Shown here piece by piece: positions 2,953-63,958 of a stretch of DNA of 64,000 nucleotides. A program made the translations under genes and the position numbers. Numbering within the stretch: position 1 is the first letter of the stretch; every line of letters starts with the position of its first letter. The notes beneath the pieces are model-generated. The model was not told the DNA's origin. It saw nothing but the letters and a program-made list of their open reading frames with translations, and made no database searches. This stretch comes from Escherichia phage vB_EcoM_HZ_ZJUN4: sequence record PP216085; one strand, 5' to 3'.

Positions 2953-3192
2953 TTGGTTAATCAATTAAGGGTAAATATGTATAAATTTCGTAAAGGTTTA
3001 GCTGATTTTCTTACAACTGTAACGTTCTTTTTGTTTATGGCAGTTGGTGCTATTTTTCTTATTCCTTTTATTGCTATATTTTTCGTGATTAGTTTGATTT
3101 CTCCAGAAAAAGGACTGTCTTCTAGCGAGTTCAATGAACGCCTGGATAAAATTACTAATAAGCTGAATGCTGTTCTTGATAAAAAGGATTAA
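2953..3192 (+). CDS. hypothetical small membrane protein
   Basis: 79-aa ORF with long hydrophobic segment. Confidence 0.5.
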   Translation: MVNQLRVNMYKFRKGLADFLTTVTFFLFMAVGAIFLIPFIAIFFVISLISPEKGLSSSEFNERLDKITNKLNAVLDKKD

Positions 3193-3194
3193 TT

Positions 3195-3506
3195 ATGATT
3201 AGTTTTGAGCGGTATGTGGTAGAGAGTTGGAAAGGTTTTGATATGTTCGGTAATGACTATTATTTTTACGAATGTAATCTAAATCCTAGTTTTTGGGCTG
3301 GACGTGAACGAGATCTCGAAGAAATTAATGCTCGTGCCGAATTGTTAGGTGAACTACCTACGGTTTATTTTACCTTTGATGCATCTGGATTTGTTATCCA
3401 GGTTTATTTTCCTGAAGAAAACTCTGGTGAGGATTCTGTTAACCCGCCATACTGGGCTTATCAAGGAATTATTTCTCGTGGAACAAAACTCGAACTTAAA
3501 GAATAA
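3195..3506 (+). CDS. hypothetical protein
   Basis: 103-aa ORF, protein-like composition, tightly packed with neighbours. Confidence 0.5.
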   Translation: MISFERYVVESWKGFDMFGNDYYFYECNLNPSFWAGRERDLEEINARAELLGELPTVYFTFDASGFVIQVYFPEENSGEDSVNPPYWAYQGIISRGTKLELKE

Positions 3507-5146: not shown

Positions 5147-5364
5147 ATATGAACGAAGCTCTTATTAACGATTTGCGTCTTGCCGGATATGAAGTAAATA
5201 CAAACGGCATTGGTTTAACTCAAATTGAAGGAAATGGATTCATCCTTGAGTATGAATTTAGCCAATGGTGGTTATACGCTAATTACGGCGAATTGATTGA
5301 ATACGTTGACCAGTTTGATTCACTAGATGCAGCTCTCGAAGCGGCTAAGTTGATGAATGTATGA
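5143..5364 (+). CDS. hypothetical protein
   Basis: 73-aa ORF, ATGA overlap with upstream gene. Confidence 0.45.
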   Translation: MNMNEALINDLRLAGYEVNTNGIGLTQIEGNGFILEYEFSQWWLYANYGELIEYVDQFDSLDAALEAAKLMNV

Positions 5365-5630
5365 AATTTATTAATATTTCTATTACTATTGAAAATTATG
5401 GAATTTTCTATGTTGACCAATACATGAAAATTTCATTTTTCCCAAATAAGACTGGTGTTGGATATTGGGAAAGCCATGTTTCTGAATTAAATGAAAGTGA
5501 ATATGCTAGCACACATGAAAAGTTTTTAGACTTTTTATATCATGCTGATTTAACTAGTCATTACATAGATATTCATGAATTTAAAAAGATGATGGAGAAA
5601 GTGTTCCAAGCATACTGTTTACTTAGATAA
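5361..5630 (+). CDS. hypothetical protein
   Basis: 89-aa ORF, ATGA overlap. Confidence 0.4.
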   Translation: MKFINISITIENYGIFYVDQYMKISFFPNKTGVGYWESHVSELNESEYASTHEKFLDFLYHADLTSHYIDIHEFKKMMEKVFQAYCLLR

Positions 5631-5708
5631 CTGATATCCTCTATGCTTTAAGATAGATCTTCAAATATTATGATATAATAGATCTATGAATTGAGCTAAG
5701 AGGTGAAA

Positions 5709-15136: not shown

Positions 15137-17833
15137 ATGAAAGAATTTTATATCTCTATTGAAACAGTCGGAAATAACATTGTTGAACGTTATATTGATG
15201 AAAATGGAAAGGAACGTACTCGTGAAGTAGAATATCTTCCGACTATGTTTAGGCATTGTAAGGAAGAGTCAAAATACAAAGACATTTATGGTAAAAATTG
15301 TGCTCCTCAAAAATTTCCATCAATGAAAGATGCCCGAGACTGGATGAAACGAATGGAAGACATCGGTCTCGAAGCTCTCGGTATGAACGATTTTAAACTC
15401 GCTTATATCAGTGATACATATGGTTCAGAAATTGTTTATGACCGAAAATTTGTTCGTGTAGCTAACTGTGACATTGAGGTTACTGGTGATAAATTTCCTG
15501 ACCCAATGAAAGCAGAATATGAAATTGATGCTATCACTCATTATGATTCAATTGACGACCGTTTTTACGTCTTTGATTTGTTGAATTCAATGTACGGTTC
15601 AGTATCAAAATGGGATGCAAAGTTAGCTGCTAAGCTTGACTGTGAAGGTGGTGATGAAGTTCCTCAAGAAATTCTTGACCGAGTAATTTATATGCCATTT
15701 GATAATGAGCGTGATATGCTCATGGAATATATTAATCTCTGGGAACAGAAACGACCTGCTATTTTTACTGGTTGGAATATTGAGGGATTTGACGTTCCGT
15801 ATATCATGAATCGTGTTAAAATGGTTCTCGGCGAACGCAGTATGAAACGCTTCTCTCCAATCGGTCGAGTAAAATCTAAACTAATTCAAAATATGTACGG
15901 TAGCAAAGAAATTTATTCTATTGATGGCGTATCTATTCTTGATTATTTAGATTTGTACAAGAAATTCGCATTTACTAATTTGCCATCATTCTCTTTGGAA
16001 TCAGTTGCTCAGCACGAAACCAAAAAAGGTAAATTACCATACGACGGTCCTATTAATAAACTTCGTGAGACTAATCATCAACGATACATTAGTTATAACA
16101 TCATTGACGTAGAATCAGTTCAAGCAATTGATAAAATTCGCGGGTTTATTGATCTAGTTTTAAGTATGTCTTATTACGCTAAAATGCCTTTTTCTGGTGT
16201 AATGAGTCCTATTAAAACTTGGGATGCTATTATTTTTAACTCATTGAAAGGTGAACATAAGGTTATTCCTCAACAAGGTTCGCACGTTAAACAAAGTTTT
16301 CCAGGTGCATTTGTATTTGAACCTAAAGCGATTGCTCGTCGATACATTATGAGTTTTGACTTGACGTCTCTGTATCCGAGTATTATTCGTCAGGTTAACA
16401 TTAGTCCTGAAACTATTCGTGGTCAGTTTAAAGTTCATCCAATTCATGAATATATCGCAGGAACAGCTCCTAAACCGAGTGATGAATATTCTTGTTCTCC
16501 GAATGGATGGATGTATGATAAGCATCAAGAAGGTATCATTCCAAAGGAAATCGCTAAAGTATTTTTCCAGCGTAAAGATTGGAAAAAGAAAATGTTCGCC
16601 GAAGAAATGAATGCCGAAGCTATTAAAAAGATTATTATGAAAGGTGCAGGGTCTTGTTCAACTAAACCAGAAGTTGAACGATATGTTAAGTTCAATGATG
16701 ATTTCTTAAATGAATTATCGAATTACACCGAATCTGTTCTTAATAGTCTGATCGAAGAATGTGAAAAAGCAGCTACACTTGCTAACACAAATCAGCTGAA
16801 CCGTAAAATTCTTATTAACAGTCTTTATGGTGCTCTTGGTAACATTCATTTCCGCTATTATGATTTGCGAAATGCTACTGCTATCACAATTTTTGGTCAA
16901 GTCGGTATTCAGTGGATTGCTCGTAAAATTAATGAATACCTGAATAAAGTGTGTGGAACTGATGGTGAAGATTTCATTGCAGCGGGTGACACTGATTCTG
17001 TATATGTTTGTGTAGATAAAGTAATTGAAAAAGTAGGTCTTGACCGCTTTAAAGAACAAAATGATTTAGTTGAATTCATGAATCAGTTCGGTAAGAAAAA
17101 GATGGAACCTATGATTGATGTTGCATATCGTGAGTTATGTGATTATATGAATAACCGCGAGCATCTGATGCATATGGACCGTGAAGCTATTTCTTGTCCT
17201 CCGCTTGGTTCAAAGGGTGTCGGTGGATTTTGGAAAGCGAAAAAACGTTATGCTCTAAACGTTTATGATATGGAAGATAAGCGATTTGCTGAACCACATC
17301 TAAAAATCATGGGTATGGAAACTCAGCAGAGTTCAACACCAAAAGCAGTACAAGAAGCTCTCGAAGAAAGTATTCGTCGTATTCTTCAGGAAGGCGAAGA
17401 GTCTGTCCAAGAATACTACAAGAACTTTGAGAAAGAATATCGTCAACTTGACTATAAAGTTATTGCTGAAGTAAAAACTGCGAATGATATAGCGAAATAT
17501 GATGATAAAGGTTGGCCAGGATTTAAATGCCCGTTCCACATTCGCGGGGTGCTAACTTATCGTCGAGCTGTTAGTGGTTTAGGTGTAGCTCCAATTTTGG
17601 ATGGAAATAAGGTAATGGTTCTTCCATTACGTGAGGGAAATCCATTTGGTGACAAGTGCATTGCTTGGCCATCAGGTACGGAACTTCCAAAAGAAATTCG
17701 TTCTGATGTACTGTCTTGGATTGACTACTCAACTTTGTTCCAAAAATCGTTTGTTAAACCGCTTGCGGGCATGTGTGAATCGGCAGGTATGGACTATGAG
17801 GAAAAAGCTTCGTTAGACTTCCTGTTTGGCTGA
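15137..17833 (+). CDS. 43: DNA polymerase gp43 (family B, with 3'-5' exonuclease)
   Basis: 898 aa; exonuclease and polymerase motifs (DIE, YGDTDS-like AGDTDSVYV). Confidence 0.95.
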   Translation: MKEFYISIETVGNNIVERYIDENGKERTREVEYLPTMFRHCKEESKYKDIYGKNCAPQKFPSMKDARDWMKRMEDIGLEALGMNDFKLAYISDTYGSEIVYDRKFVRVANCDIEVTGDKFPDPMKAEYEIDAITHYDSIDDRFYVFDLLNSMYGSVSKWDAKLAAKLDCEGGDEVPQEILDRVIYMPFDNERDMLMEYINLWEQKRPAIFTGWNIEGFDVPYIMNRVKMVLGERSMKRFSPIGRVKSKLIQNMYGSKEIYSIDGVSILDYLDLYKKFAFTNLPSFSLESVAQHETKKGKLPYDGPINKLRETNHQRYISYNIIDVESVQAIDKIRGFIDLVLSMSYYAKMPFSGVMSPIKTWDAIIFNSLKGEHKVIPQQGSHVKQSFPGAFVFEPKAIARRYIMSFDLTSLYPSIIRQVNISPETIRGQFKVHPIHEYIAGTAPKPSDEYSCSPNGWMYDKHQEGIIPKEIAKVFFQRKDWKKKMFAEEMNAEAIKKIIMKGAGSCSTKPEVERYVKFNDDFLNELSNYTESVLNSLIEECEKAATLANTNQLNRKILINSLYGALGNIHFRYYDLRNATAITIFGQVGIQWIARKINEYLNKVCGTDGEDFIAAGDTDSVYVCVDKVIEKVGLDRFKEQNDLVEFMNQFGKKKMEPMIDVAYRELCDYMNNREHLMHMDREAISCPPLGSKGVGGFWKAKKRYALNVYDMEDKRFAEPHLKIMGMETQQSSTPKAVQEALEESIRRILQEGEESVQEYYKNFEKEYRQLDYKVIAEVKTANDIAKYDDKGWPGFKCPFHIRGVLTYRRAVSGLGVAPILDGNKVMVLPLREGNPFGDKCIAWPSGTELPKEIRSDVLSWIDYSTLFQKSFVKPLAGMCESAGMDYEEKASLDFLFG

Positions 17834-18807: not shown

Positions 18808-19548
18808 ATGATTAATGACTCTATGACAGTTGAAGAAATTCGTCTTCATTTGGGAATTGCATTAAAGGAAAAAGATTTTGTAATTGACAAAACCGGGGTT
18901 AAAACTATTGAAATTATTGGTGCATCATTTGTAGCAGATGAACCTTTTATTTTTGGCGCTCTTAATGATGAATACATTCAGCGTGAACTTGAATGGTATA
19001 AGTCTCAAAGTTTGTTTGTTAAAGATATTCCAGGTGAAACACCAAAGATTTGGCAGCAGGTAGCATCTTCTAAAGGCGAAATTAACTCGAATTATGGTTG
19101 GGCTATTTGGTCAGAAGATAACTATGCTCAGTATGATATGTGTTTAGCTGAACTTGGTCAAAATCCTGATTCTCGGCGTGGTATCATGATTTATACTCGT
19201 CCATCCATGCAGTTTGACTACAATAAAGATGGTATGTCAGATTTCATGTGTACGAATACAGTACAGTACCTGATTCGTGATAAGAAAGTCAATGCAGTAG
19301 TAAGCATGAGAAGCAATGATTGCTGGGCAGGCTATCGTAATGATTATGCTTGGCAAAAATACGTACTAGATAAATTAGTATCTGACTTGAATGCAGGCGA
19401 CCCATCGCGGCAATATAAAGCAGGTTCTATTATATGGAACGTTGGAAGTCTTCATGTGTACGAAAATCAGTTTTATTTAGTTGACCATTGGTGGAACACC
19501 GGTGAGACTCATATTGCTAAAAAGGATTATACTGGAAAATGGAAGTAA
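18808..19548 (+). CDS. 42: dCMP hydroxymethylase gp42
   Basis: 246 aa; thymidylate-synthase-like fold sequence recognised as T4 gp42. Confidence 0.9.
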   Translation: MINDSMTVEEIRLHLGIALKEKDFVIDKTGVKTIEIIGASFVADEPFIFGALNDEYIQRELEWYKSQSLFVKDIPGETPKIWQQVASSKGEINSNYGWAIWSEDNYAQYDMCLAELGQNPDSRRGIMIYTRPSMQFDYNKDGMSDFMCTNTVQYLIRDKKVNAVVSMRSNDCWAGYRNDYAWQKYVLDKLVSDLNAGDPSRQYKAGSIIWNVGSLHVYENQFYLVDHWWNTGETHIAKKDYTGKWK

Positions 19549-20180
19549 ATGTGCCACATGTTTATAAGTATAAACATCCTAAAACTAAAAAGTGGTATAT
19601 AGGAAGTCATGATGGTCACAACCCGAATTATGATGGTTCGGGTGTAGTTTGGCAACATGCTAAAAAGAAATATGGAATAAAATCCTTTAATAAAGAAATA
19701 TTATATGAAGGACCAATGTTTAGACAGGTTGAAGAAATTATTTTAACTTGTTTAGATGCTGCTAATTGTCCGGATTCATATAATTTAAAGAATGAAGCAT
19801 GGGGAGGAAGTTTTCCAGGCAAATTAAATGGAATGTACGGTAAAAAACTATCTCCAGAAGAAAGATATAAGTGCGGAAATGCCTTTCGTGGAATCAAGCG
19901 TCCTGATCATTCTAAAAGAATGAAAGGCGAAGGTAATCCAATGTATGGTAAAAATGAGCAGGCATATGGAATTATAAATCGAGCCAAGGAAAATTCTGGT
20001 AAAACTTATGAAGAAATTTTTGGCGTAGAAAAAGCTAAAATAATTAAAGAAACGATGTCTAAAAATCGTAAAGGAAAACCTCATAATTTGATAGAAAAAA
20101 TATGTCCGCATTGCGGACTAAAAGGACGTGGGCCAAATATGACAAGATACCATTTTGACAAATGTAAGGCACTTAAATGA
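19539..20180 (+). CDS. GIY-YIG homing endonuclease-like protein (Seg-like)
   Basis: N-terminal VYKYKHPKTKKWYIGS (GIY..YIG variant); C-terminal CPHCG..C zinc finger; overlaps gene 42 stop. Confidence 0.6.
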   Translation: MEVNVPHVYKYKHPKTKKWYIGSHDGHNPNYDGSGVVWQHAKKKYGIKSFNKEILYEGPMFRQVEEIILTCLDAANCPDSYNLKNEAWGGSFPGKLNGMYGKKLSPEERYKCGNAFRGIKRPDHSKRMKGEGNPMYGKNEQAYGIINRAKENSGKTYEEIFGVEKAKIIKETMSKNRKGKPHNLIEKICPHCGLKGRGPNMTRYHFDKCKALK

Positions 20181-21019
20181 TTCAATTCGTAATTCCAAGT
20201 TATCAACGCGTAGGGGCAGTTTCTGCCCTTGATATGTTTCCGACTGATTATGAACCTCATATTGTAGTACGTGAACACGAAGAAAAAGCTTATTATGACG
20301 CTTACGGGTCTAGAGCTAAAATTATAACTATTCCTGATGATGTTAATGGAATTGCTGGAACTCGTAAAGCAATTACTGATATGTATGCAGGTCAACGAAT
20401 CTGGATGATTGACGATGATACTACTATTCGTATGAGTTCAATGCGAAAGAAAGATGATCGTCGCTGCGTAGATAAAATTAACCAGTTAACTCGTGAACAG
20501 TTCTATGAATTGATTCAATACGTTGAAGATGCCATGGATTGCGGGTATTATCATGGTCATGCTCGTTTACCTATTTTTAAAATTACTTCATCTTGGGGTA
20601 ATTATCGTGAAAATTCATATGGATTCACGAATACTTGGTATGACCTCGGAAAACTTGCAACAGAACAAATTGGGTATGGAAAAATTGATTTATGCGAAGA
20701 TATGTATGCATTTCTCAATTTAATTAATCAAGGTTATCCGCATTTGGCCTTGTTCAAATATCTAGTTGTATCTGGAAAAGCACAGGCTCCCGGTGGATGC
20801 AGCTCAATTCGTAGTAATTCAAAACATAATAGAGCGCTTGAGCAAATCAATAGAGAGTTTCCAGAGCAAGCTCGTTGGAAAACTTCTAATATTGAAAAAC
20901 GAAAATCATTGGGTGAAGAAGACGAGCCATTAAAGGTTCTTCGCATGTGTGTTTCACGCAAAGAAAAGTCAGAAGCATTTCATAAGTTTAATGCTATTCA
21001 TCCAATAGCAGTTGATTAA
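20177..21019 (+). CDS. putative glycosyltransferase with DxD motif (WMIDDDTT); candidate T2/T6-type beta-glucosyl-HMC-alpha-glucosyltransferase at the T4 beta-gt locus
   Basis: 280-aa ORF between 42 and uvsX; no resemblance to T4 beta-gt as I recall it; DxD after hydrophobic strand. Confidence 0.4.
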   Translation: MIQFVIPSYQRVGAVSALDMFPTDYEPHIVVREHEEKAYYDAYGSRAKIITIPDDVNGIAGTRKAITDMYAGQRIWMIDDDTTIRMSSMRKKDDRRCVDKINQLTREQFYELIQYVEDAMDCGYYHGHARLPIFKITSSWGNYRENSYGFTNTWYDLGKLATEQIGYGKIDLCEDMYAFLNLINQGYPHLALFKYLVVSGKAQAPGGCSSIRSNSKHNRALEQINREFPEQARWKTSNIEKRKSLGEEDEPLKVLRMCVSRKEKSEAFHKFNAIHPIAVD

Positions 21020-24294: not shown

Positions 24295-24549
24295 ATGCAC
24301 ATTGTTTTATTTAAACCTACTCCATACAGTGAATCATACTGTGTTAGGAAAAATACAAAATTTAAATTACCTATTTCATCCGCATGGGAATTGGTATTAG
24401 ATATTCCAGCAGAAGAAAGCCCTCCATTCGGTCGAGTGGAATTTATTGAGTTTGTTGTACGTCCTACGAAGCGACAGATTCGCCAATGCAAAAGATACTT
24501 TCGTAAAATAGTCAAGTTAGAGAAACAGTTACTGATGCTAGTAAAATAG
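24295..24549 (+). CDS. hypothetical protein (T4 61.4 position)
   Basis: ORF with GAGGA SD before ATG 24295; track start 24253 overlaps dmd. Confidence 0.45.
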   Translation: MHIVLFKPTPYSESYCVRKNTKFKLPISSAWELVLDIPAEESPPFGRVEFIEFVVRPTKRQIRQCKRYFRKIVKLEKQLLMLVK

Positions 24550-24583
24550 TAGTTTACAAGCTGATAGAGTTGTGTTATAGTAA
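24548..24583 (+). promoter_or_regulatory. T4-type early promoter (GTTTACA 24552-24558, TATAGT 24576-24581)
   Basis: Near duplicate of promoter at 24048. Confidence 0.55.
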
Positions 24584-24612
24584 TTCTATCAGCTAATCGC
24601 GGAGAAAAGAAA

Positions 24613-24867
24613 ATGATGCTAGTTAATAGAGAATATCAGTTTAAATCAGAAGAAGATTTGGAAAAATTCGCAAGTGGTTGTGAACTGAATAGACGCACAG
24701 CTAAAGTCATAGGATTAAAACCCTTTACAGTTCTAGATTGTGAAGTTTCTAAATTCCGCAGAGGGTGTTCTATTAGCGGTCATGCTCTGGTTGATGGGAA
24801 CACATTTTTCTTTGTTTTTAGCGTCAGAGAACTTTTATTGATTAACGAACTTGAGGAAATAAAATAG
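24613..24867 (+). CDS. hypothetical protein
   Basis: 84-aa ORF downstream of early promoter. Confidence 0.5.
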   Translation: MMLVNREYQFKSEEDLEKFASGCELNRRTAKVIGLKPFTVLDCEVSKFRRGCSISGHALVDGNTFFFVFSVRELLLINELEEIK

Positions 24868-25998: not shown

Positions 25999-27027
25999 AT
26001 GTCATCAATACCTTGGATTGATAATGAGTTTGCATATCGTGCGCTAGCTCATTTACCTAAATTCACACAAGTAAATAATAGTTCAACTTTTAAATTGCGG
26101 TTTAGATGCCCTGTTTGTGGAGATTCAAAAACCGACCAAAATAAAGCCCGTGGATGGTATTACGGCGATAATAATGAAGGAAATATTCATTGTTATAACT
26201 GTAACTATCATGCACCAATCGGAATATATTTAAAGGAGTTTGAACCTGATTTATATCGTGAGTATATCTTTGAAATAAGAAAAGAAAAAGGTAAAAGTCG
26301 TCTAGTAGAAAAACCTAAAGAACTTCCTAAACAACCCGAGAAGAAAATAATTAAATCTCTTCCGTCATGCATTAGATTAGATAAACTGGCGGAAGACCAT
26401 CCAATTATAAAATACGTAAAAGCTCGCTGTATTCCAAAGGATAAATGGAAATATCTTTGGTTTACAACCGAATGGCCTAAATTAGTTAATAGTATAGCAC
26501 CAGGAACATATAAAAAGGAAATACCTGAGCCTCGTCTTGTTATTCCAATTTATAATGCTAATGGAAAAGCTGAGTCTTTTCAAGGACGTGCATTAAAGAA
26601 AGATGCTCCTCAAAAATATATCACCATCAAAGCTTATCCTGAGGCAACAAAAATCTATGGAGTTGAACGAGTTAAAGATGGTGATGTATATGTTCTAGAA
26701 GGACCTATAGATTCACTTTTTATTGAAAATGGTATAGCTATTACGGGTGGTCAATTAGACCTAGAAATTGTTCCATTTAAAGATAGACGTGTATGGGTTT
26801 TAGATAATGAACCTCGTCACCCTGACACTATTAAACGAATGACTAAATTAGTTGATGCAGGAGAAAGGGTTATGTTTTGGGATAAATCTCCCTGGAAATC
26901 AAAAGATGTTAATGATATGATTAGAAAGGAAGGTGCAACCCCTGAACAAATTATGGAATATATGAAAAATAATATTGCCCAAGGGTTGATGGCTAAAATG
27001 CGGCTATCTAAATATGCTAAGATTTAA
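25999..27027 (+). CDS. 61: DNA primase gp61
   Basis: 342 aa; N-terminal zinc ribbon CPVCGDS..CYNCNYH; TOPRIM-like region. Confidence 0.9.
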   Translation: MSSIPWIDNEFAYRALAHLPKFTQVNNSSTFKLRFRCPVCGDSKTDQNKARGWYYGDNNEGNIHCYNCNYHAPIGIYLKEFEPDLYREYIFEIRKEKGKSRLVEKPKELPKQPEKKIIKSLPSCIRLDKLAEDHPIIKYVKARCIPKDKWKYLWFTTEWPKLVNSIAPGTYKKEIPEPRLVIPIYNANGKAESFQGRALKKDAPQKYITIKAYPEATKIYGVERVKDGDVYVLEGPIDSLFIENGIAITGGQLDLEIVPFKDRRVWVLDNEPRHPDTIKRMTKLVDAGERVMFWDKSPWKSKDVNDMIRKEGATPEQIMEYMKNNIAQGLMAKMRLSKYAKI

Positions 27028-27328: not shown

Positions 27329-28668
<1,340 letters not shown>

Positions 28669-28728
28669 CTGCTTATATATTCAAATGATATAATTATTTA
28701 ACTTATTAATGAATTGAAAGGAAAACTA

Positions 28729-29247
28729 ATGGCTCACTTTAATGAATGTGCTCATTTGATCGAAGGTGTTGATAAAGCAAATCGTGCATATGCTGAGAAT
28801 ATTATGCACAATATTGACCCACTGCAGGTTATGCTTGATATGCAGAAATCTTTACAGATTCGCTTGGCTAATGATAAGCCAGAAACAAATCGTCATCCTG
28901 ATTCGCTTGAAACTGCAGGAGAAGTTCTTGCTTGGTTGCGAAACCAAGACGATTATATCGCAGACGAAACTCGCGAGCTATATACTTCTCTTGGCGGTAT
29001 GAGTAATGGCGAAAAAGAAGCTTCTGCTGTATGGAAACCTTGGAAGAAACGTTATTCTGAAATGCAATCCAAGAAAATTCAAGATTTATCTCCTGAAGAT
29101 CAACTTGAAATTAAATTTGAACTAATTGACCAATTTCACTTTTTCATGAATAAATTCATTGCTCTTGGAATGTCAGCTGAAGAAATCTTTAAACTTTATT
29201 ATCTGAAAAATGCCGAAAACTTCGCTCGTCAAGACCGAGGCTATTAA
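28729..29247 (+). CDS. 56: dCTP pyrophosphatase gp56
   Basis: MAHFNECAHLIEGVDKAN... recognised as T4 gp56; AAGGAAAA SD; MazG-like. Confidence 0.85.
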   Translation: MAHFNECAHLIEGVDKANRAYAENIMHNIDPLQVMLDMQKSLQIRLANDKPETNRHPDSLETAGEVLAWLRNQDDYIADETRELYTSLGGMSNGEKEASAVWKPWKKRYSEMQSKKIQDLSPEDQLEIKFELIDQFHFFMNKFIALGMSAEEIFKLYYLKNAENFARQDRGY

Positions 29248-29414
29248 TGGCTCGTTTAAATAAACGTCAGCTTAAGAAAGCCCATAAGAAACGTATTGAC
29301 CAGCTATTTAAAGATTATAACAAAGAGCTCGTGTGTGAGCTCTTAACTAATCAACTTCGTATGGTTGAAATTATAGAAGGTCCTGACGAAATTTTGTCAG
29401 TGAAGAAGCTTTAA
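29247..29414 (+). CDS. hypothetical small basic protein (55 aa)
   Basis: ATG overlaps gene 56 stop (TAATG); not in track. Confidence 0.35.
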   Translation: MARLNKRQLKKAHKKRIDQLFKDYNKELVCELLTNQLRMVEIIEGPDEILSVKKL

Positions 29415-29443
29415 AATTAATTATAGAGCATTCAAAATGAAAT

Positions 29444-29647
29444 TTGATTTTTTATGCATGGCAAAAAGCCGGGAGACCGGCTAGTCGAGCATTTGGTTCC
29501 GATGGATATAATATTAGAGCCCATTGGAAATTTAATGCTCCAGAAGATTATTCTCCGGTAATTATTAACGGCGATGTTGTTATATTAACTAAAATCGGGT
29601 ATTTTAACGTTCCGCGAGAATTTATTATAAATAATCATGTAATTTAA
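29444..29647 (+). CDS. hypothetical protein
   Basis: 67-aa ORF between 56 and soc. Confidence 0.35.
   Translation: MIFYAWQKAGRPASRAFGSDGYNIRAHWKFNAPEDYSPVIINGDVVILTKIGYFNVPREFIINNHVI
29626..29633 (+). promoter_or_regulatory. T4 late promoter TATAAATA upstream of soc
   Basis: Exact TATAAATA about 30 nt upstream of soc ATG. Confidence 0.6.
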
Positions 29648-29663
29648 ATAAAAGGAGAATTAC

Positions 29664-29921
29664 ATGGCTAGTACTCGCGGTTATGTTAATATCAAAACAT
29701 TTGACCAAGCAGTTGATGGTGGTACAATTCAGGGTAAAGAAATTTCTGTAGCTTTCCCTCTTTATTCTGATGTTCACAAAATTTCTGGTGCTCATTATCA
29801 GACATTCCCTTCTGAAAAAGCAGCATATTCTACAGTATATGAAGAAAATCAGCGTACTGAATGGATCACTGCAAATGAAGGTCTTTGGACTGTTACACCT
29901 ACACCTGGTGTAGGTGGTTAA
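29664..29921 (+). CDS. soc: small outer capsid protein Soc
   Basis: MASTRGYVNIKTFDQ...VAFPLYSDVHKISGAHYQTFPSEKAAYSTVYEENQRTEW recognised as Soc. Confidence 0.88.
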   Translation: MASTRGYVNIKTFDQAVDGGTIQGKEISVAFPLYSDVHKISGAHYQTFPSEKAAYSTVYEENQRTEWITANEGLWTVTPTPGVGG

Positions 29922-29930
29922 ATAATTTAA

Positions 29931-29954
29931 GGAATCCTTCGGGGTTCCTTTTTT
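29931..29954 (+). terminator. hairpin ggaatccttcggggttcc + TTTTTT
   Basis: GC stem, UUCG loop, T run after soc. Confidence 0.6.
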
Positions 29955-29961
29955 CGTTTTT

Positions 29962-29996
29962 GCAGTTTACTTTCCAAAACAAGTATGGTATAATAG
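29962..29996 (+). promoter_or_regulatory. T4-type early promoter (GTTTAC 29965-29970, TGGTATAAT -10 29989-29994)
   Basis: Near-consensus early promoter. Confidence 0.6.
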
Positions 29997-30020
29997 AATT
30001 ATCTTATAGAGGAGAGCACT

Positions 30021-30233
30021 ATGTTAAATCGCTGGATTAAACCAAATGAAGACCTCCAGAAGGTTCTTGATAAAGCTATCGCTGATAAATGGGGTATGAA
30101 AAGCTGGGATTGTGATGTCGTCACGCATTCATTCATGATGCATGCAGATGGTTCAGTCGAGTTCAATGCTGAAATGCGATATACTGACTGGGGTGGATTT
30201 CAAAGAGTCGAATTTCAAAGAGGCTTTTTGTAA
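30021..30233 (+). CDS. hypothetical protein
   Basis: 70-aa ORF after early promoter and SD. Confidence 0.5.
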   Translation: MLNRWIKPNEDLQKVLDKAIADKWGMKSWDCDVVTHSFMMHADGSVEFNAEMRYTDWGGFQRVEFQRGFL

Positions 30234-39034: not shown

Positions 39035-39299
39035 AATTATGAAATATGTTAATCGTTCTATCGCAGCATTAGTATTAGCAGTATCTTTAGTAGGATGTAC
39101 TGATGCTGATAATGCAACCAAAGTTTTGTCTTCAAGCGGTTTTACTAATATTGAAATCACTGGATATAATTGGTTCGGTTGCTCTGAAAATGATTTCCAA
39201 CACACTGGATTTCGTGCTATTGGACCTACCGGGCAGAAAGTAGAAGGAACAGTATGTTCTGGTCTATTCTTCAAGGATTCGACTATCCGTTTTAAATAA
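39027..39299 (+). CDS. predicted lipoprotein (signal peptide, LVGC lipobox)
   Basis: MKYVNRSIAALVLAVSLVGCTD... Confidence 0.5.
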   Translation: MSEIMKYVNRSIAALVLAVSLVGCTDADNATKVLSSSGFTNIEITGYNWFGCSENDFQHTGFRAIGPTGQKVEGTVCSGLFFKDSTIRFK

Positions 39300-39300
39300 A

Positions 39301-39314
39301 AGGCCTTCGGGCCT
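39301..39314 (+). terminator. hairpin aggccttcgggcct
   Basis: GC stem and UUCG loop after lipoprotein gene. Confidence 0.5.
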
Positions 39315-39315
39315 T

Positions 39316-39341
39316 TAGCTTTATGATTACCGGAGTATAAT
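39316..39341 (+). promoter_or_regulatory. candidate MotA-dependent middle promoter (tAGCTTTA 39316-39323, TATAAT 39336-39341, 12-nt spacing)
   Basis: Same module as 8421-8446. Confidence 0.45.
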
Positions 39342-39368
39342 ATTCCCGAAACCAAACGAGGATAAGTG

Positions 39369-40919
39369 ATGATTAAGAATGAAATTAAAATTCTAAGCGA
39401 TATTGAACATATCAAAAAGCGTAGCGGCATGTATATTGGCTCTTCTGCTAATGAAATGCATGAGCGCTTTCTGTTTGGTAAATGGGAAAGTGTTCAGTAT
39501 GTACCTGGTCTTGTTAAGCTTATTGATGAAATTATCGATAACTCAGTAGATGAAGGTATTCGTACTAAGTTTAAATTCGCAAATAAAATTAATGTTACTA
39601 TTAAAAACAATCAAGTAACAGTTGAAGATAACGGTCGTGGTATTCCACAAGCGATGGTTAAAACACCTACCGGTGAAGAAATTCCTGGTCCTGTTGCTGC
39701 ATGGACTATTCCAAAAGCAGGCGGTAACTTTGGTGATGATAAAGAACGCGTCACTGGCGGTATGAACGGTGTTGGTTCTAGTTTAACTAACATTTTTTCT
39801 GTGATGTTTGTCGGTGAAACTGGCGACGGTCAAAATAATATTGTAGTTCGTTGTTCAAATGGCATGGAAAATAAATCATGGGAAACTATTCCTGGAAAAT
39901 GGAAAGGAACTCGCGTTACTTTCATTCCTGATTTTATGTCATTTGAAACTAATGAGCTATCTCAAGTTTATCTTGACATTACACTAGATCGTCTCCAGAC
40001 ACTTGCAGTAGTTTATCCTGATATTCAATTTACCTTTAATGGTAAAAAGGTTCAGGGTAATTTTAAGAAATATGCACGCCAATATGATGAACACGCTATC
40101 GTTCAAGAACAAGAAAATTGTTCTATTGCGGTTGGTCGTTCACCCGATGGTTTTCGTCAATTAACATACGTCAATAACATTCATACTAAGAATGGTGGCC
40201 ATCACATTGACTGCGTTATGGATGATATTTGTGAAGACCTTATTCCACAAATCAAACGTAAGTTCAAAATTGACGTAACTAAAGCACGTGTTAAAGAATG
40301 TTTGACTATCGTTATGTTTGTTCGTGATATGAAAAACATGCGATTTGATTCTCAAACTAAAGAGCGTCTGACTTCTCCATTTGGTGAAATCCGTAGTCAT
40401 ATTCAGCTTGATGCTAAAAAGATTTCACGTGCTATTTTGAATAATGAAGCAATTTTAATGCCAATCATTGAAGCTGCCTTGGCTCGTAAATTGGCGGCAG
40501 AAAAAGCAGCAGAAACTAAAGCAGCTAAAAAGGCTTCTAAAGCTAAGGTTCATAAACATATTAAAGCGAATCTTTGCGGTAAAGATGCTGATACTACTCT
40601 TTTCTTGACTGAGGGTGATTCTGCTATCGGATATCTTATTGATGTTCGTGATAAAGAACTTCATGGTGGTTATCCATTGCGTGGTAAAGTTCTTAACAGT
40701 TGGGGTATGTCATATGCTGATATGCTTAAAAATAAAGAACTGTTTGATATTTGCGCAATCACTGGATTAGTTCTTGGTGAAAAGGCGTTTGAAGAAAAAG
40801 AAGATGGCGAGTGGTTTACTTTCGAACTAAATGGCGATACAATTATCGTAAATGAAAATGATGAAGTACAGATTAATGGTAAATGGATAACAGTAGGTGA
40901 ATTACGAAAAAATCTATAA
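39369..40919 (+). CDS. 39: DNA topoisomerase II large subunit gp39 (GyrB-like ATPase), N-terminal part of split gene
   Basis: 516 aa from ATG 39369; GHKL ATPase motifs (NSVDEG, GRGIP, GGMNGVGSS). Confidence 0.9.
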   Translation: MIKNEIKILSDIEHIKKRSGMYIGSSANEMHERFLFGKWESVQYVPGLVKLIDEIIDNSVDEGIRTKFKFANKINVTIKNNQVTVEDNGRGIPQAMVKTPTGEEIPGPVAAWTIPKAGGNFGDDKERVTGGMNGVGSSLTNIFSVMFVGETGDGQNNIVVRCSNGMENKSWETIPGKWKGTRVTFIPDFMSFETNELSQVYLDITLDRLQTLAVVYPDIQFTFNGKKVQGNFKKYARQYDEHAIVQEQENCSIAVGRSPDGFRQLTYVNNIHTKNGGHHIDCVMDDICEDLIPQIKRKFKIDVTKARVKECLTIVMFVRDMKNMRFDSQTKERLTSPFGEIRSHIQLDAKKISRAILNNEAILMPIIEAALARKLAAEKAAETKAAKKASKAKVHKHIKANLCGKDADTTLFLTEGDSAIGYLIDVRDKELHGGYPLRGKVLNSWGMSYADMLKNKELFDICAITGLVLGEKAFEEKEDGEWFTFELNGDTIIVNENDEVQINGKWITVGELRKNL

Positions 40920-41715
40920 TGACTTAATAGTGCGGGGTAAAACCCGCGTTTCTAAATTTAAGGGTGAAATTCATCATATCCTTCCAAGATCAATGGGAGG
41001 TTCTGATGATAAAGAAAATTTGGTGAAACTGACTTTTCGTGAACATTTTTTAGCACATTTTCTACTATATAAAATTCATCGTAATCGTGAAATGGCATAT
41101 GCGATGAATAGAATGTTAAACACTGAAAAATATTTACGTTCTAGTAAATTATATGAAATTACTAGAATTTACCATCAAAGAGCAGTATCTGAATGGTCAA
41201 AAAACTTTATGAAAGATAAAGTTTTAATGAGAAGTATTAAATCGGGTAAATGCGCCTTATTAATTAAAGGATCATTTAACCCAAAGGAATGGTGCGGTGT
41301 TAATAAAGGTGTTAAGCTTCCTGGAATTAAAGGCATGACATGCTTTAAAAATGAAAAAGGCGAAGTTTTTCGTCTTCATGTTAATGATCCACGCATTAAA
41401 GCTGAAAAATTAGTTGGTATTGGAAATACTGTTGCTGCTACTGCAAAAGCAGCTGAACTTGAAAAAGCGAAACCATGGTATAATAAATCAGCGACAAATC
41501 CAGAGGCTGTAAAATTAATACCAAATTTATATGAATGGTACGTCACGAAATATGACCCCGATCATTATAAACGAACGGGAGTTGCTAAATGGAAATCAGT
41601 TAATAATATAACTGTGAATTCAAAATTATTCGGCCGAGCATTTAATGAATTTAAACGCGGTTGGATTCCTGATGAAAAGTTCTATGAGGTGTATAATGAA
41701 ATTTGTAAAAATTGA
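40897..41715 (+). CDS. mobA: HNH homing endonuclease (MobA-like) between genes 39 and 60
   Basis: 272 aa; EIHHILPRSMGGSDDKENLVKLTFREHFLAHF HNH core; overlaps 39 end and 60 start. Confidence 0.7.
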   Translation: MNYEKIYNDLIVRGKTRVSKFKGEIHHILPRSMGGSDDKENLVKLTFREHFLAHFLLYKIHRNREMAYAMNRMLNTEKYLRSSKLYEITRIYHQRAVSEWSKNFMKDKVLMRSIKSGKCALLIKGSFNPKEWCGVNKGVKLPGIKGMTCFKNEKGEVFRLHVNDPRIKAEKLVGIGNTVAATAKAAELEKAKPWYNKSATNPEAVKLIPNLYEWYVTKYDPDHYKRTGVAKWKSVNNITVNSKLFGRAFNEFKRGWIPDEKFYEVYNEICKN

Positions 41716-41833
41716 TTCTTCTAGCGTTGATATGAAAAAATATAAATTGCAGAACAATGTTCGTCGTTCTATTAAATCCTCTTCAATGAACTATGCGAAT
41801 GTCGCTATTATGACAGACGCAGATCACGATGGA
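41696..41833 (+). CDS. 60: topoisomerase II subunit gp60, codons 1-46 (pre-bypass)
   Basis: MKFVKIDSSSVDMKKYKLQNNVRRSIKSSSMNYANVAIMTDADHDG ends at take-off GGA followed by TAG. Confidence 0.9.
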
Positions 41834-41883
41834 TAGCCTTCGGGCTATCTATAGAAATACCTCATAATTAAGAGATTATTGGA
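41834..41883 (+). promoter_or_regulatory. 60: gene 60 translational bypass coding gap (50 nt): UAG stop plus take-off stem-loop tagccttcgggctatct, ending at landing GGA 41881-41883
   Basis: Sequence GAT GGA TAG CCTTCGGGCTATCTATAGAAATACCTCATAATTAAGAGATTATT GGA TTA GGT matches the T4 gene 60 hop element as I recall it. Confidence 0.9.
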
Positions 41884-42228
41884 TTAGGTTCTATTTATCC
41901 TTCTCTGCTCGGATTTTTTAGTAATTGGCCAGAATTGTTTGAACAAGGAAGAATTCGCTTTGTCAAAACTCCTGTAATCATCGCTCAGGTCGGTAAAAAA
42001 CAAGAATGGTTTTATACAGTCGCTGAATATGAGAGTGCCAAAGATGCTCTACCTAAACATAGCATCCGTTATATTAAAGGACTTGGCTCTTTGGAAAAAT
42101 CTGAATATCGTGAGATGATTCAAAACCCAGTATATGATGTTGTTAAACTTCCTGAGAACTGGAAAGAGCTTTTTGAAATGCTCATGGGAGATAATGCTGA
42201 CCTTCGTAAAGAATGGATGAGCCAGTAG
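41884..42228 (+). CDS. 60: gp60 post-bypass segment (LGSIYPSLLGFFSNW...)
   Basis: In-frame continuation after landing codon; track lists only 41935-42228 from an internal Met. Confidence 0.88.
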   Translation, partial: LGSIYPSLLGFFSNWPELFEQGRIRFVKTPVIIAQVGKKQEWFYTVAEYESAKDALPKHSIRYIKGLGSLEKSEYREMIQNPVYDVVKLPENWKELFEMLMGDNADLRKEWMSQ

Positions 42229-42258
42229 TTTACTTTACCACAAGGACGTGGTATAATT
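42225..42258 (+). promoter_or_regulatory. T4-type early promoter (GTTTAC 42228-42233, TGGTATAAT -10 42252-42257)
   Basis: Near-consensus. Confidence 0.6.
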
Positions 42259-42282
42259 AATTGGGCAAATGAGGATATTGAA

Positions 42283-42486
42283 ATGAAATCATATAAAGTA
42301 AATTTAGAACTTTTTGATAAAGCAGTTCATCGAGAATATAGAATCATTCAACGCTTTTTCGATATGGGAGAAGCCGAAGAGTTTAAAAACCGCTTTAAGA
42401 ATATTAGAGATAAAATTCAATCCGACACCGCAACTAAAGATGAACTACTAGAAGTTGCTGAAGTTATTAAACGCAATATGAATTAA
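42283..42486 (+). CDS. hypothetical protein
   Basis: 67-aa ORF upstream of rIIA. Confidence 0.5.
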
Positions 42487-42496
42487 TGAGGAAATT

Positions 42497-44674
42497 ATGA
42501 TTATCACCACTGAAAAAGAAACTATTCTTGGTAATGGTTCTAAATCAAAAGCATTTAGCATCACAGCATCTCCTAAAGTATTTAAAATTCTGTCATCTGA
42601 TTTGTATACAAACAAGATTCGCGCAGTAGTACGTGAATTGATTACTAATATGATTGATGCCCATGCTCTTAATGGAAATCCTGAAAAATTTATCATACAA
42701 GTTCCAGGACGATTAGACCCACGATTTGTTTGCCGAGATTTTGGTCCGGGTATGAGCGATTTTGATATTCAGGGTGATGATAATTCTCCTGGGTTGTATA
42801 ATTCATACTTTAGTTCATCTAAGGCTGAATCTAACGATTTCATTGGCGGATTTGGTTTAGGTTCTAAATCTCCGTTTAGTTATACTGATACATTTAGTAT
42901 TACTTCATATCATAAAGGTGAAATTCGTGGTTATGTAGCTTACATGGATGGTGACGGTCCGCAGATTAAACCTACATTCGTAAAAGAAATGGGTCCAAAT
43001 GATAAAACTGGTATTGAAATCGTAGTTCCAGTTGAAGAAAAAGACTTTAGAAACTTTGCTTATGAAGTTTCTTATATCATGCGACCATTCAAAGATTTGG
43101 CTATTATTAATGGTCTTGACCGTGAAATTGATTATTTTCCGGATTTTGATGACTATTACGGCGTAAATCCAGAAAGATATTGGCCAGATCGTGGTGGATT
43201 GTATGCTATCTATGGCGGTATTGTTTATCCTATTGATGGTGTTATTAGAGACCGTAACTGGTTAAGCATCCGCAATGAAGTGAATTATATTAAGTTTCCA
43301 ATGGGTTCACTTGATATTGCTCCATCGCGTGAGGCTCTTTCACTAGATGATCGTACTCGTAAAAATATTATTGAGCGTGTTAAAGAGCTCAGTGAGAAGG
43401 CATTTAATGAAGATGTAAAACGATTTAAAGAATCTACATCTCCTCGTCATACATACCGTGAATTGATGAAGATGGGGTATTCTGCTCGAGATTATATGAT
43501 TAGTAATTCAGTCAAATTCACGACTAAAAATCTGTCATATAAGAAGATGCAGAGCATGTTTGAACCTGACAGTAAGTTATGCAATGCAGGGGTTGTGTAT
43601 GAAGTAAATCTTGACCCTCGACTGAAACGCATTAAGCAAAGTCATGAAACTTCAGCCGTTGCATCAAGCTATCGTCTGTTTGGTATTAATACGACAAAAA
43701 TTAATATTGTTATTGATAATACTAAAAATCGTGTTAATATTGTCCGTGGATTAGCACGCGCGTTAGATGATAGTGAATTTAATAACACCTTAAATATTCA
43801 TCACAATGAGCGGCTTCTGTTTATTAATCCGGAAGTAGAATCGCAGATTGATTTGCTTCCTGATATTATGGCAATGTTTGAAAGTGATGAAGTTAACATT
43901 CATTATTTATCAGAAATTGAAGCTTTAGTTAAAAGTTATATTCCAAAGGCAGTAAAAAGTACAGCTCCTCGTCCTAAAGCTGCTACTGCATTTAAGTTTG
44001 AAATTAAAGACGGGCGCTGGGAAAAAGAGGAATTGTTTACGCTCACATCAGAAGCAGATGAAATTACTGGTTATGTAGCATACATGCATCGTTCTGATAT
44101 TTTCTCTATGGATGGTACTACATCGCTTTGTCATCCATCTACGAGTATTTTGACTCGTATGGCTAATCTTATTGGCATTAATGAATTTTATGTTATTCGT
44201 CCGCTTTTGCAGAAAAAGGTAAAAGAACTTGGTCAATGCCAATGTATTTTTGAAACTTTGCGTGATTTATATGTAGATGCTTTTGATGATGTAGATTATG
44301 ATAAGTATGTAGGTTATTCAAGTTCAGCTAAACGATATATTGATAAAATTATCAAGTATCCTGAGTTAGATTTTATGATGAAGTACTTCAGTGTAGATGA
44401 AGTTTCTGAAGAATATACACGACTCGCTAATATGGTTAGTTCATTACAGGGTGTATATTTCAACGGTGGAAAAGATACCATCGGTCATGACATCTGGACA
44501 GTAACTAATCTTTTTGATGTATTATCAAATAATGCTTCAAAAAACAGTGATAAAATGGTTGCTGAGTTTACCAAGAAATTCCGTATTGTTTCCGACTTCA
44601 TCGGTTATCGCAACTCTTTAAGTGATGATGAAGTTTCCCAAATCGCTAAAACTATGAAGGCCCTTGCGGCCTAA
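42497..44674 (+). CDS. rIIA: rIIA membrane-associated protein (lysis inhibition / exclusion phenotype)
   Basis: 725 aa; size and position as T4 rIIA; GHKL-like N-terminal region. Confidence 0.88.
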
Positions 44675-44685
44675 TAAGGAAAATT

Positions 44686-54875: not shown

Positions 54876-57800
54876 TTATTTTAACAATGATTTAACTAAT
54901 GCTTTAAGTTCTTCAATTTCTGATTTAAGTTCCGCAATTTCTGCAGTATGCTCATTGATTGCAGCTGTATTTAAACCAATTACGCCGTTATAGTTCAAAC
55001 GAAGTAAAGCTTCACCATCAGGGTCACCTTCAACTAATTCTGGTAAAATAGCTTGAACTTCTTGAGCTATCAAACCGGCGTTAGGTTCCCATTTCTGATT
55101 GCCTTCTTCATCTAGGCCTCGCTTCTGCATATAAGTGTAACCGTTAATTTTAGAAAGCTTCTCAGAAGCATTTTCAAATTTAACAAGGTCTTTTTTAACA
55201 CGAATATCAGAGCGGACATAAACGTCACGAACAAATGTTGAATAGTTGTCATTCGCCTGAATCAAATGACCATGTGAAATAATAGCTTTGTCAACTTCAG
55301 TCCATAAAGCAGCACCAACAGACCACAATCCTGGGTGTTCTTGATGGAAAACCCCCCATGACGCAATATGTTGTCCGTTAGCAAACATGTTAATACGACC
55401 ATCACCGCCATGGACTAAACCAGTATCATTATCACCGATGGCGATAGATGCTCCGCCCCATACCGGAATTGTACCGACACCCAAGTTAACACCAGCGCGA
55501 AGACCAGCCGGAGCTTTAAAATCGCCATTAGCTTGAAACACAAATATTGCATTAGGATGACTGCTATCTCCACTTTCCGCAGAACCAACACGAATTACTG
55601 CATTTCCCCAAGTAGCATCTCCGCCCAATCTAATAATACCAAAATCTGCCTTTGTTGCATATCCTTCGTTAATGATTTGGCTTCTTCCTTTAATTATAGG
55701 CATATAACTATCTTTCGGAACAGATTCACCAAAGTCAACGAAGAATGGGGCTTCTGTTTGCCATTGATTACTATATCCGTGGCCTTGGGTAGCTGTCCAT
55801 TGTCTTCCGTTTAAATATAAACGATAAAAATTTAATGAAGCTGCAGTAGCTTGATTTTTAACATTAAAGTCAATATCGCCTACACTATTAAGAGTAATTC
55901 CTGCCGTAGTCTTAAAATTATAAAATGAAGCAGTGTCATCTGCCCCGCCTTTACCGATGTACCATGAATTCGCTCCACCTGATGTTCCAAGTAAATAACC
56001 AGAATCATTTTCATCGGCAGCAATGTTAATAGCGTCAGAGCCTCTTTTAACGATTAATTTGCCGGTCATCGTATCGCCTTCTTTAGCAACACGGGAGGCA
56101 ATAGCATCATGAAGGTTGGTTATATCACCAGCAGAGCTAAATAATTTCCAAATATCAGAGAAGATATTACCATTTCGAGCAATAGTAGCTTCGCCGCCAC
56201 CGACCTGTACGTTATCCGGGAAGTTAACTGTACCGTCCTGATTAAAACGAGACGTATGGCCTTGTGAACCATCTTCTTTCAGATGATGAATAACGAATGT
56301 ACCCGAATTAATTTCAGTACCTAAAGACCAAACAGCTTTGCCGTTTAAAAACTTCTGTTTAACAATAGGATAATATTTGCTTATAGCATCATCATCAATT
56401 TCCTGGAAAATAGGAGCTGCTTGAACATACTGAATGTCATAACCACCAGCGCCTGCGCCATGACCAGTAAATTTAATATAGCCGTTTGCTGCGAACGTAT
56501 TGTAACTTGATTGTAAATCTGGAATAGTAACTTTACCAGTATCTAAAGCCATACTAAACGGGCGAAGTGGACCGATATCACCATATTTACCTTCACCGTA
56601 AGCAGTTGGAATAATATGAAGACTTCCTTCTGAACGTCTAAAAATGGCTCCATAATCTGCGTTCCAAATACGAAGAGCATTCACTGCTCCAGATGAAATT
56701 TCGCCTGTTGTGTGAACTCCTCTATTTCCAGCAGTAACACCGGATGATTCAAATGAACCATTGACGTTCATTTCTACTTCGCCGGTAGTAAGTCTTTGAA
56801 TATAGCTCATCCAACTAGTTGCGTCAGAAATTTCCATGACATTTTTACGATTACCTACGCTAGGATTAGTAAACGTATTACCCCATACAGAAATTGTCAT
56901 ATTATCAACTGAACTGCTACCAGTTGTGTTACCTCTAAACATCAGCGTAGAAGCATTATTACGACCATCAATATTAACAGAACCACCAATAACGTCAATA
57001 TTACCTGGAGTGACTAACAAACCGCCGTGAGTATTAATGTTTGTGGTACCCTTACCGCGGAAATAATGATGATAATTACCACCTTGGTAATATCCTAAAA
57101 GAGTCTGACCGTCACCATACGCGTTATTATCATGGTAAGTAACAACAGTGGCTAATGCATAGTTTTCAGTTGGAGGAGTCGTTAAATCGGTTCCATTAGT
57201 AGAATATCCAGCTACAAATTTTCTTAGGCTAGTTGTTTCGCTAGGACTAAATAAAAATGTTTTCGTTCCATTATTAACGCTGAAATAATATCCGTCCTGA
57301 TGCCATTTTAGCCCGGTATCATTATCTCCAAGAGCAATTGAAGCAGTCCCTAGTTCAGAGTATCCTTTAGAGCCACCAGGAGTACCAACAGAAATAGAAT
57401 GGCCTGCTTTCAATCCACCGGACCAGGTAAACGACCAAAGATAGGCATCTAACCCGTCACCGGCGTACCAGGTTATCCCGTCGTTATCTTTAACTTCATG
57501 GAATATACCAGATCCTACGGCATTTCGCATAACACGGAGGTGGTTAATAGCCGTTTCGCTTTCTGCCAATGGAGTGTTATTTGCTAATGAAGATATATCA
57601 TAATCGCCCGTCTTCTTCCCATCTGTAATAACTTTATCGGTCAGAATTTGTGGAGACGAAATAGATTTCCACGCTGATACTTCAGGTGAAGTAAATAGTC
57701 CACTGCCTGAAAATGCATAGGTGCTTTCGCTTCCTGCAGCATAATCTTGAACCCTGATATTAAGTACTTGTGTAGTTAATCCATCATTAGCCGGGGCATA

Positions 57801-58202
57801 AATGATTCCGCGTTCGCGGCTATTGCCATCGAAAAAACGAACATGTGATGTACCTGAACTTTTTGTAATAAGTTCTCCGCCCTCAGTCATAATTTGCCCG
57901 GCGGCAATAATATCGCGAGTTACTCGAGCAATACCAGTTAAATTAAAATTACCTGTCTGAGTGAAGGTGCCATTTAAAGTATAATCACCAGTTTGATTAT
58001 AATTTCCTATATGAATAACATTCCCGTCAATACTACCGCCCTTAGCAAAACCCAGATCAATGATATTTCCTTGGTCATCTTTAGTAAAAAGTACGCGGTC
58101 TTTTAAGTTTATAGCCAATTCACCTTCGGCTAATACTGAAGCGGCAGGACGTGCTCCTGCAGTTTTGCTTCTTTTAAATTGTATTTGTTTTAAAGTAGCC
58201 AT
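54876..58202 (-). CDS. 37: long tail fibre distal subunit gp37
   Basis: 1108 aa, Gly/Thr/Ser/Asn-rich fibrous protein; [13 protein letters not shown] start; order 34-35-36-37-38. Confidence 0.88.
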
Positions 58203-58890: not shown

Positions 58891-58898
58891 TATTTATA
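58891..58898 (-). promoter_or_regulatory. T4 late promoter TATAAATA (minus strand) upstream of gene 36
   Basis: Plus-strand tatttata 24 nt upstream of gene 36 start. Confidence 0.6.
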
Positions 58899-63923: not shown

Positions 63924-63958
63924 TCTCCCGGGCTCCTATTGTGTTTTCAATAATAAGT

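Follow-up and report, generated by a model that had tools for sequence, protein, structure and literature searches.

Organization of the Gene 56–soc Region

The window analyzed here is a stretch of 64,000 nt of DNA from Escherichia phage vB_EcoM_HZ_ZJUN4 (sequence record PP216085). Between gene 56 and soc, it holds only an ORF of 55 aa, an ORF of 67 aa, and a late promoter for soc. An earlier note on this DNA had described the interval in these terms, and the ORF listing and the sequence agree with it. The same note stated that the interval lacks a homing endonuclease gene, which is borne out by two kinds of search. Tblastn with T4 SegF returned no match at E <= 1e-3 across the whole 64-kb window, and profile searches of the 55-aa and 67-aa ORFs for an endonuclease domain found none. 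The two ORFs correspond to the genes soc.2 and soc.1 of T2. The features of the region are listed in Table 1.

Table 1. Genes and sequence features from gene 61 to the 3' side of soc. Positions are those of the window.
Feature	Position	Strand	Basis or remark
Primase gene 61	25999-27027	+	ORF listing
186-aa ORF	27329-27889	+	ORF listing
dam	27889-28668	+	ORF listing
Putative Mot-box-like TGCTTA	28670-28675	+	5' of gene 56; consensus scan match 28665-28694
Putative -10 TATAAT	28689-28694	+	5' of gene 56; same consensus scan match 28665-28694
Gene 56 (dCTPase/dUTPase), 172 aa, T2-type allele	28729-29247	+	Nucleotide and protein identity
soc.2, short 55-aa allele	29247-29414	+	phrog_5782 match; tblastn with T2 soc.2
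soc.2 T-run, 4 T (5 in T2 and EP01)	29392-29395	+	Alignments
soc.1 (Pfam DUF7422), frameshifted	29437-29647	+	Pfam PF24197; tblastn; alignments
67-aa ORF, TTG start	29444-29647	+	Open part of the soc.1 frame
soc.1 T-run, 6 T (5 in T2, T6, EP01, and DRR768369)	29448-29453	+	Alignments
Late promoter TATAAATA for soc	29626-29633	+	Octamer count; AF374619 annotation
Shine-Dalgarno AAGGAG of soc	29652-29657	+	Read from sequence; kept in all alleles
soc, small outer capsid protein, 85 aa	29664-29921	+	Pfam PF16855 Soc, E 2.7e-45
Intrinsic-terminator-like hairpin and T-run 3' of soc	29929-29960	+	Terminator scan

The T2 entry AF374619 annotates the positions equivalent to the TGCTTA and TATAAT elements 5' of gene 56 as "middle promoter motif box" and "Pribnow box." We infer that the two elements would act as a middle promoter in this phage as well. 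The late promoter octamer TATAAATA lies 31 nt before the soc ATG and within the 3' end of soc.1, and AF374619 annotates it at the equivalent position as a late promoter. The octamer occurs three times in the 64-kb window, against 10 +/- 3.4 copies expected from shuffles, and is therefore rarer than chance. All three copies are found just upstream of late genes, namely soc, gene 36 (octamer at 58891-58898), and gene 34 (octamer at 63958-63965). Its scarcity would fit selection that removes stray late promoters from early regions. The sequences of T4, T2, T6, and RB14 can be aligned from exactly this octamer onward, and it is the left edge of the sequence common to all alleles of the locus. An Rfam search over 28500-30100 yielded no credible RNA family; the sole match, TarB, scored 23 bits against a gathering score of 80.

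Alleles of the Junction in T-Even Phages

Megablast with positions 28600-30000 gave full-length matches to EP01 (98.4%) and T2 (96.3%, five T2 records), and 174 records cover at least 80% of this segment. The 416-nt interval between 56 and soc is present at a coverage of at least 80% in 204 phage records and is 98% identical to that of T2. The T2 record LC348380 shows two hypothetical ORFs of 64 and 69 aa in the interval, while the T6 ORFs are annotated as soc.2 and T6ORF029. A T2 entry of 1542 bp that was deposited in 2001 (AF374619) bears the features 56, soc.2, soc.1, late promoter, and soc'. This T2 locus is the one of Belle, Landthaler and Shub (2002, Genes Dev 16:351).

The region of vB_EcoM_HZ_ZJUN4 shares with that of T2 the gene order, the TAATG junction at which the start of soc.2 overlaps the stop of gene 56, the position of the late promoter, and a T2-type gene 56. 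It differs from T2 at 3 of the 172 residues of the gene 56 product and in both small genes. Its soc.2 encodes 55 aa and has a run of four T, whereas T2 soc.2 encodes 64 aa; its soc.1 ATG is out of frame because of one additional T, whereas T2 soc.1 is a 69-aa gene.

T4 (NC_000866) and RB55 have segF (gene 69) at this position, where it overlaps gene 56 by 11 nt. In T4, segF encodes a 224-aa GIY-YIG endonuclease, and vB_EcoM_HZ_ZJUN4 lacks it. The earlier note had stated that T4 carries segF between 56 and soc. The T4 annotation agrees, as does Table 1 of PMC2988022, which lists segF as a free-standing GIY-YIG endonuclease at soc/56 with gene 56 as its target. The two phages are alike in the genes that flank the 56–soc region and in their order (about 93-97% identity to T4), in the first 49 nt of gene 56, and in the sequence from TATAAATA into soc, which is identical. 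In both, the upstream ORF contains the soc late promoter in its 3' end. The interval was aligned to T4 to see whether it has the standard T4 arrangement, and only the last ~38 nt before soc match; with segF-carrying phages in general, the shared stretch before soc is ~38-52 nt.

Other relatives fill the same position in other ways. RB14 has kept soc.2 and lacks soc.1, and phages of the RB6/RB3 type have no ORF between 56 and soc. Both have the T2-type gene 56 and the same late promoter and Shine-Dalgarno sequence as vB_EcoM_HZ_ZJUN4. One Mosigvirus contains both small ORFs at 77% identity. The junction is a site of variable cassettes, with the gene 56 end on one side and the soc late promoter on the other, and segF is its minority occupant.

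Gene 56 itself is divided into alleles. The gene 56 of vB_EcoM_HZ_ZJUN4 is 99.0% identical in nucleotide sequence to that of EP01, 97.1% to T6, 96.7% to T2, and 70.7% to T4/RB55, and the first 49 nt are the same in all of these phages. Its product matches 169 of 172 residues of the T2 protein and 119 of 172 of the T4 protein. In the phage collection, about 51 records carry the T4-type allele (at least 90% identity) and 387 carry a gene at 60-80% identity to it. DNA resembling segF is found in 61 records in all, ~48 of which have a close segF. Because the number of records with the T4-type gene 56 (~51) matches that with close segF (~48), the two are linked. The endonuclease gene and the diverged gene 56 allele travel together, which is the outcome expected of co-conversion combined with a resistant target site.

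The start of soc.2 (TAATGGCTCGTTTAAATAAACGT; MARLNKR; 29245-29267, + strand) repeats the start of gene 56 (TAATGGCTCACTTTAATGAATGT; MAHFNEC; 28727-28749, + strand) at 18 of 23 positions. The repeat could be due to chance, or it could be a trace of the joining of the cassette to gene 56.

The Small Genes soc.2 and soc.1

The 55-aa product of soc.2 matches phrog_5782 (E 5.8e-29). Tblastn with T2 soc.2 aligns residues 1-50 at 98% identity and residues 50-64 at 100% in another frame, and the run of four T is what shortens the protein from 64 to 55 aa. The short form stops 22 nt before the ATG of soc.1, whereas the longer form overlaps that ATG. Across lineages, the first ~35 residues of soc.2 are conserved and the C-terminus varies in length, with forms of 55, 57, 64, and 67 aa. 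Soc.2 also gave weak matches to DUF2714 and Cas2 (E 0.005-0.02), which fall short of the thresholds and were dropped as chance.

The 67-aa ORF matches Pfam DUF7422 (PF24197) over its residues 3-67 with an E-value of 2.2e-43. The score is 146.6 bits against a cut-off of 27, and the match extends over positions 5-69 of the 69 profile positions. The ORF also matches phrog_5773, and tblastn with T2 soc.1 aligns residues 5-69 at 98.5% identity. T2 soc.1 matches the same Pfam family end to end (E 1e-46). DUF7422 is a narrow family: a set of 5.8 billion proteins yields only 11 clusters of it at 90% identity, and nearly all of its members are on phage-sized contigs of ~165-170 kb or bear Tequatrovirus or Shigella-phage names. 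A block of residues, FYAWQKAGRPA, is invariant in soc.1 homologues down to 59% identity. The additional T in the soc.1 run places the ATG at 29437 out of frame. Translation from this ATG reaches a stop after 15 codons, and the remainder of the gene is open only from the TTG at 29444.

Soc.2 and soc.1 are small conserved proteins that are specific to T-even phages. An AlphaFold model of soc.1 built on an 8-sequence alignment was mediocre (pLDDT 69.5), and Foldseek found nothing in the PDB with an E-value below 1. NCBIfam and PADLOC likewise returned nothing significant for soc.1. The labels "head protein" and "virion structural protein" in PHROG and RefSeq were most likely carried over from the positional names soc.1 and soc.2, and they are not evidence of function.

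Weighing the Possible Readings

The interval is best read as the T2/T6-type, segF-less allele of the 56–soc junction of T-even phages, to which we assign a probability of about 0.9. A different history would be that a segF-carrying, T4-like ancestor lost the gene by deletion and that the small ORFs are what its decay left behind. Once fixed, genes for homing endonucleases are expected to degenerate, and T4-type features do exist elsewhere in the window, in the 39/mobA/60 region. Such a history is nevertheless extremely improbable. The 415 nt at 29211-29625 have no similarity to the 696 nt that T4 has there, SegF finds no match by tblastn, and no GIY-YIG or NUMOD remnant is seen in the interval. 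In place of the T4 sequence stands an intact cassette that is 96-99% identical to T2, T6, and EP01 and 77% identical to a Mosigvirus. In addition, soc.1 belongs to a Pfam family with invariant residues, and the adjoining gene 56 is of the T2 type and not of the T4 type. It could also be argued that the interval is a non-coding spacer in which AT-rich DNA happens to leave two frames open. The ORFs are very short and have no assigned function, the C-terminal end of soc.2 is free to vary in length, soc.1 carries a frameshift in this phage, and RB6-type phages do without any ORF here while RB14 has soc.2 only. We consider this very unlikely in view of the end-to-end match of soc.1 to DUF7422 with its invariant block, the conservation of the soc.2 N-terminal part and the retention of the TAATG overlap, and the membership of both ORFs in PHROG families.

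The two T-runs raise the separate question of whether the 55-aa ORF and the TTG-start 67-aa ORF are products of homopolymer sequencing errors, in which case the true phage would encode a 64-aa soc.2 and a 69-aa soc.1. Both changes relative to T2 and EP01 are single-T length shifts in T-runs that are 54 nt apart, no record of the "phages" collection has either of them, and the coding capacity past each shift is still 98-100% identical to T2. An error of this kind is quite improbable, however, given how the variants recur. An exact protein look-up in Logan found the identical 55-aa soc.2 product on contigs from four other read sets, and a variant with 2 substitutions and the same tail is found on 15 contigs of a diverged lineage (ERZ23500234) that have the same 4-T run and an intact 74-aa soc.1. 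The 4-T variant had no match when viral_contigs was scanned for the exact pattern; it was the exact protein look-up that found it. In DNA alignments, the 6-T run of soc.1 is seen in the assemblies of three read sets (SRR33482062, SRR33482063, and SRR29082206), while the fourth, DRR768369, has four T in soc.2 and five T in soc.1. Only six 1-nt indels separate the phage from EP01 in about 40 kb, which argues against an assembly prone to homopolymer errors; the remaining four are intergenic when their coordinates are transferred to the T4 annotation. The recurrence of the two T-run variants in independent read assemblies shows that neither is a sequencing error. The 4-T soc.2 is an old natural short allele and the additional T in soc.1 a recent, genuine frameshift, and soc.1 is probably not made in its normal form in this lineage. 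A more elaborate proposal is that soc.2-soc.1 forms a functional two-gene module that is an allelic competitor of segF and that the additional T (U-run GAU UUU UUA) represents either a real and recent loss of the gene's activity or a switch that works by slippage. If it were a switch, a +1 ribosomal shift on the U-run would restore full-length soc.1 at a low level. That the frameshift is real and recurs, and that soc.1 is otherwise conserved, are observations neutral on recoding, and we regard the proposal as very doubtful. Programmed -1 frameshifting on the U UUU UUA heptamer was considered and rejected, since the -1 frame is not the soc.1 frame; as read from the sequence, only a +1 shift would restore it.

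Accessory Cassettes Across the Window

The earlier note had concluded from several loci that this is a mosaic T-even genome. We compared the whole window to T4, T2, and T6 by blastn and added tblastn searches with marker proteins and Pfam searches. The region of 39/mobA/60.1/60 (39037-44685) is colinear with T4 at 96.6% identity, as the note's T4-like assignment of 39/60 implied, and T2 and T6 lack positions 40786-41893. As in T4, there is no endonuclease gene between 46 and 46.1. T4 beta-gt has no tblastn match in the window, so that its reported absence holds; the phage has instead a T2/T6-type beta-glucosyl-HMC-alpha-glucosyltransferase (20177-21019) with 98% identity to T2 by tblastn. T4 gp38 likewise has no tblastn match in the window. 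The gp38 of this phage (54068-54856, - strand) is of the adhesin type (Pfam PF05268, E 4e-71), in keeping with the note's distinction from T4, but its sequence is close to T6 (86.6%) and not to T2 (42.7%), so the designation T2-type does not extend to its sequence. Of T4, T2, and T6, only T2 shares the 186-aa ORF beside dam. T4 segA, mobB, and the nrdD intron with I-TevII are absent from the window. Three features of the phage are absent from T4, T2, and T6: an HNH-like ORF between nrdD and nrdG, a GIY-YIG ORF between gene 42 and the glucosyltransferase gene, and the distal part of gene 37.

In the conserved backbone, identity is about 95-97% to each of T4, T2, and T6. Mosaicism is therefore found in the choice of accessory cassettes, some of T4 type and others of T2/T6 type, and not in large blocks derived from T4 or T2, a refinement of the mosaic reading in the note, which the comparison supports. 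The phage is thus a separate Tequatrovirus lineage whose cassettes are common to different relatives, and not a simple T4 x T2 hybrid.

Several of these cassettes deserve a brief description. The 186-aa ORF overlaps the start of dam (ATGA) and resembles a small protein of the PD-(D/E)XK or type II restriction-endonuclease kind (PADLOC REase_II, E 3.6e-5; Pfam DpnII, E 0.002, which is below the family threshold). Its block RRFDIVI...KHIIEIKHQ (D72, E85, and K87) is invariant in homologues down to 49% identity. When an AlphaFold model (pLDDT 79.7, pTM 0.78) is compared with the PDB, all of its matches are nucleases with the PD-(D/E)XK fold (best E-value 6e-4). Homologues with 62% and 56% identity are also found directly upstream of a Dam-type methyltransferase on T4-like contigs. 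The ORF is present in T2 and EP01, T4 has dam only, and T6 has neither gene; T6 (MH550421) at 16159-16431 lacks both dam and the ORF, and its gene 56 adjoins dam.1 and gene 61. The phage GATC methylase could have a nuclease partner in this protein. The literature searched contained no description of it.

A 279-aa HNH/NUMOD-like ORF (1563-2402, + strand) lies between nrdD, which ends at 1566, and nrdG (2392-2862). It occupies the site of T4 mobC and T6 segH, and its DNA cannot be aligned to either. It has 36% identity to the endonuclease found between 46 and 46.1 of EP01, T2, and T6. The N-terminus of nrdG (MNYDRIYPCCFVN) is repeated in the first 13 residues of this ORF (MNYDRFYPCDFVN), which looks as though the cassette had taken on a copy of the beginning of the gene that follows it. 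A 213-aa GIY-YIG-type ORF (VYKYK...WYIGS; 19539-20180, + strand) is located between gene 42 and the beta-alpha-glucosyltransferase gene. It matches TIGR01453 (group I intron endonuclease) with an E-value of 3e-5 and has 37% identity to SegA. Its site is empty in T2 and T6, while EP01 has the ORF and annotates it as hypothetical. The phage, though it lacks segF, is therefore not free of seg-like genes.

For the distal tail-fibre gene 37 (54876-58202, - strand; 1108 aa), blastn finds no counterpart in T4, T2, or T6 over about 54.9-58.0 kb. The gene has a Peptidase_S74 intramolecular chaperone domain (E 1e-12) at its end and is paired with the T6-like gp38 adhesin. Three short segments, at 3177-3502, 5375-5636, and 24530-24860, likewise have no match in any of these three phages, and ORFs of 103 aa (3195-3506) and 89 aa (5361-5630) lie in the first and second of them.

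SegF and the Predicted Fate of the Allele in Mixed Infections

Free-standing endonucleases are described in PMC2988022 as cutting hundreds to thousands of bp from their own genes. When T4 is crossed with T2, gene 56 of T2 is excluded, which PMC2330249 attributes to gene conversion started by SegF, and PMC5931544, citing Belle et al. (2002), states that segF is replaced by this region in T2. By analogy with T2, we infer that gene 56 of vB_EcoM_HZ_ZJUN4 is an allele that would be cut and converted by the SegF of a co-infecting T4. The basis is that it is 96.7% identical to the gene 56 of T2, which is the published substrate; the products of the two genes differ at three residues. In a mixed infection with a segF-carrying phage, SegF would most likely cut the gene 56 of this phage. 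Repair from the T4 copy would then replace both the gene 56 allele and the soc.2-soc.1 cassette by T4 gene 56 and segF. Such a replacement would amount to intronless homing, or localized marker exclusion. The data presented here show the anatomy of the locus, the identity of its alleles, how frequent these are in the population, and that segF is linked to gene 56 of the T4 type, whereas SegF sensitivity and conversion are predicted from the literature.

The arrangement found in vB_EcoM_HZ_ZJUN4 is already known and is an ordinary, published T2-type allele. It places the phage in the majority of Tequatrovirus, which is without segF. The new details are modest and consist of a natural 55-aa soc.2 allele and a soc.1 frameshift in this lineage, the latter of which suggests that soc.1 is dispensable. 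Intronless homing has a textbook example in this locus, and the relevance of the present analysis is mainly in the correct annotation of the locus. Since the phage has a T2-type gene 56 and no segF, local exclusion of these markers is the predicted outcome of crosses with T4.
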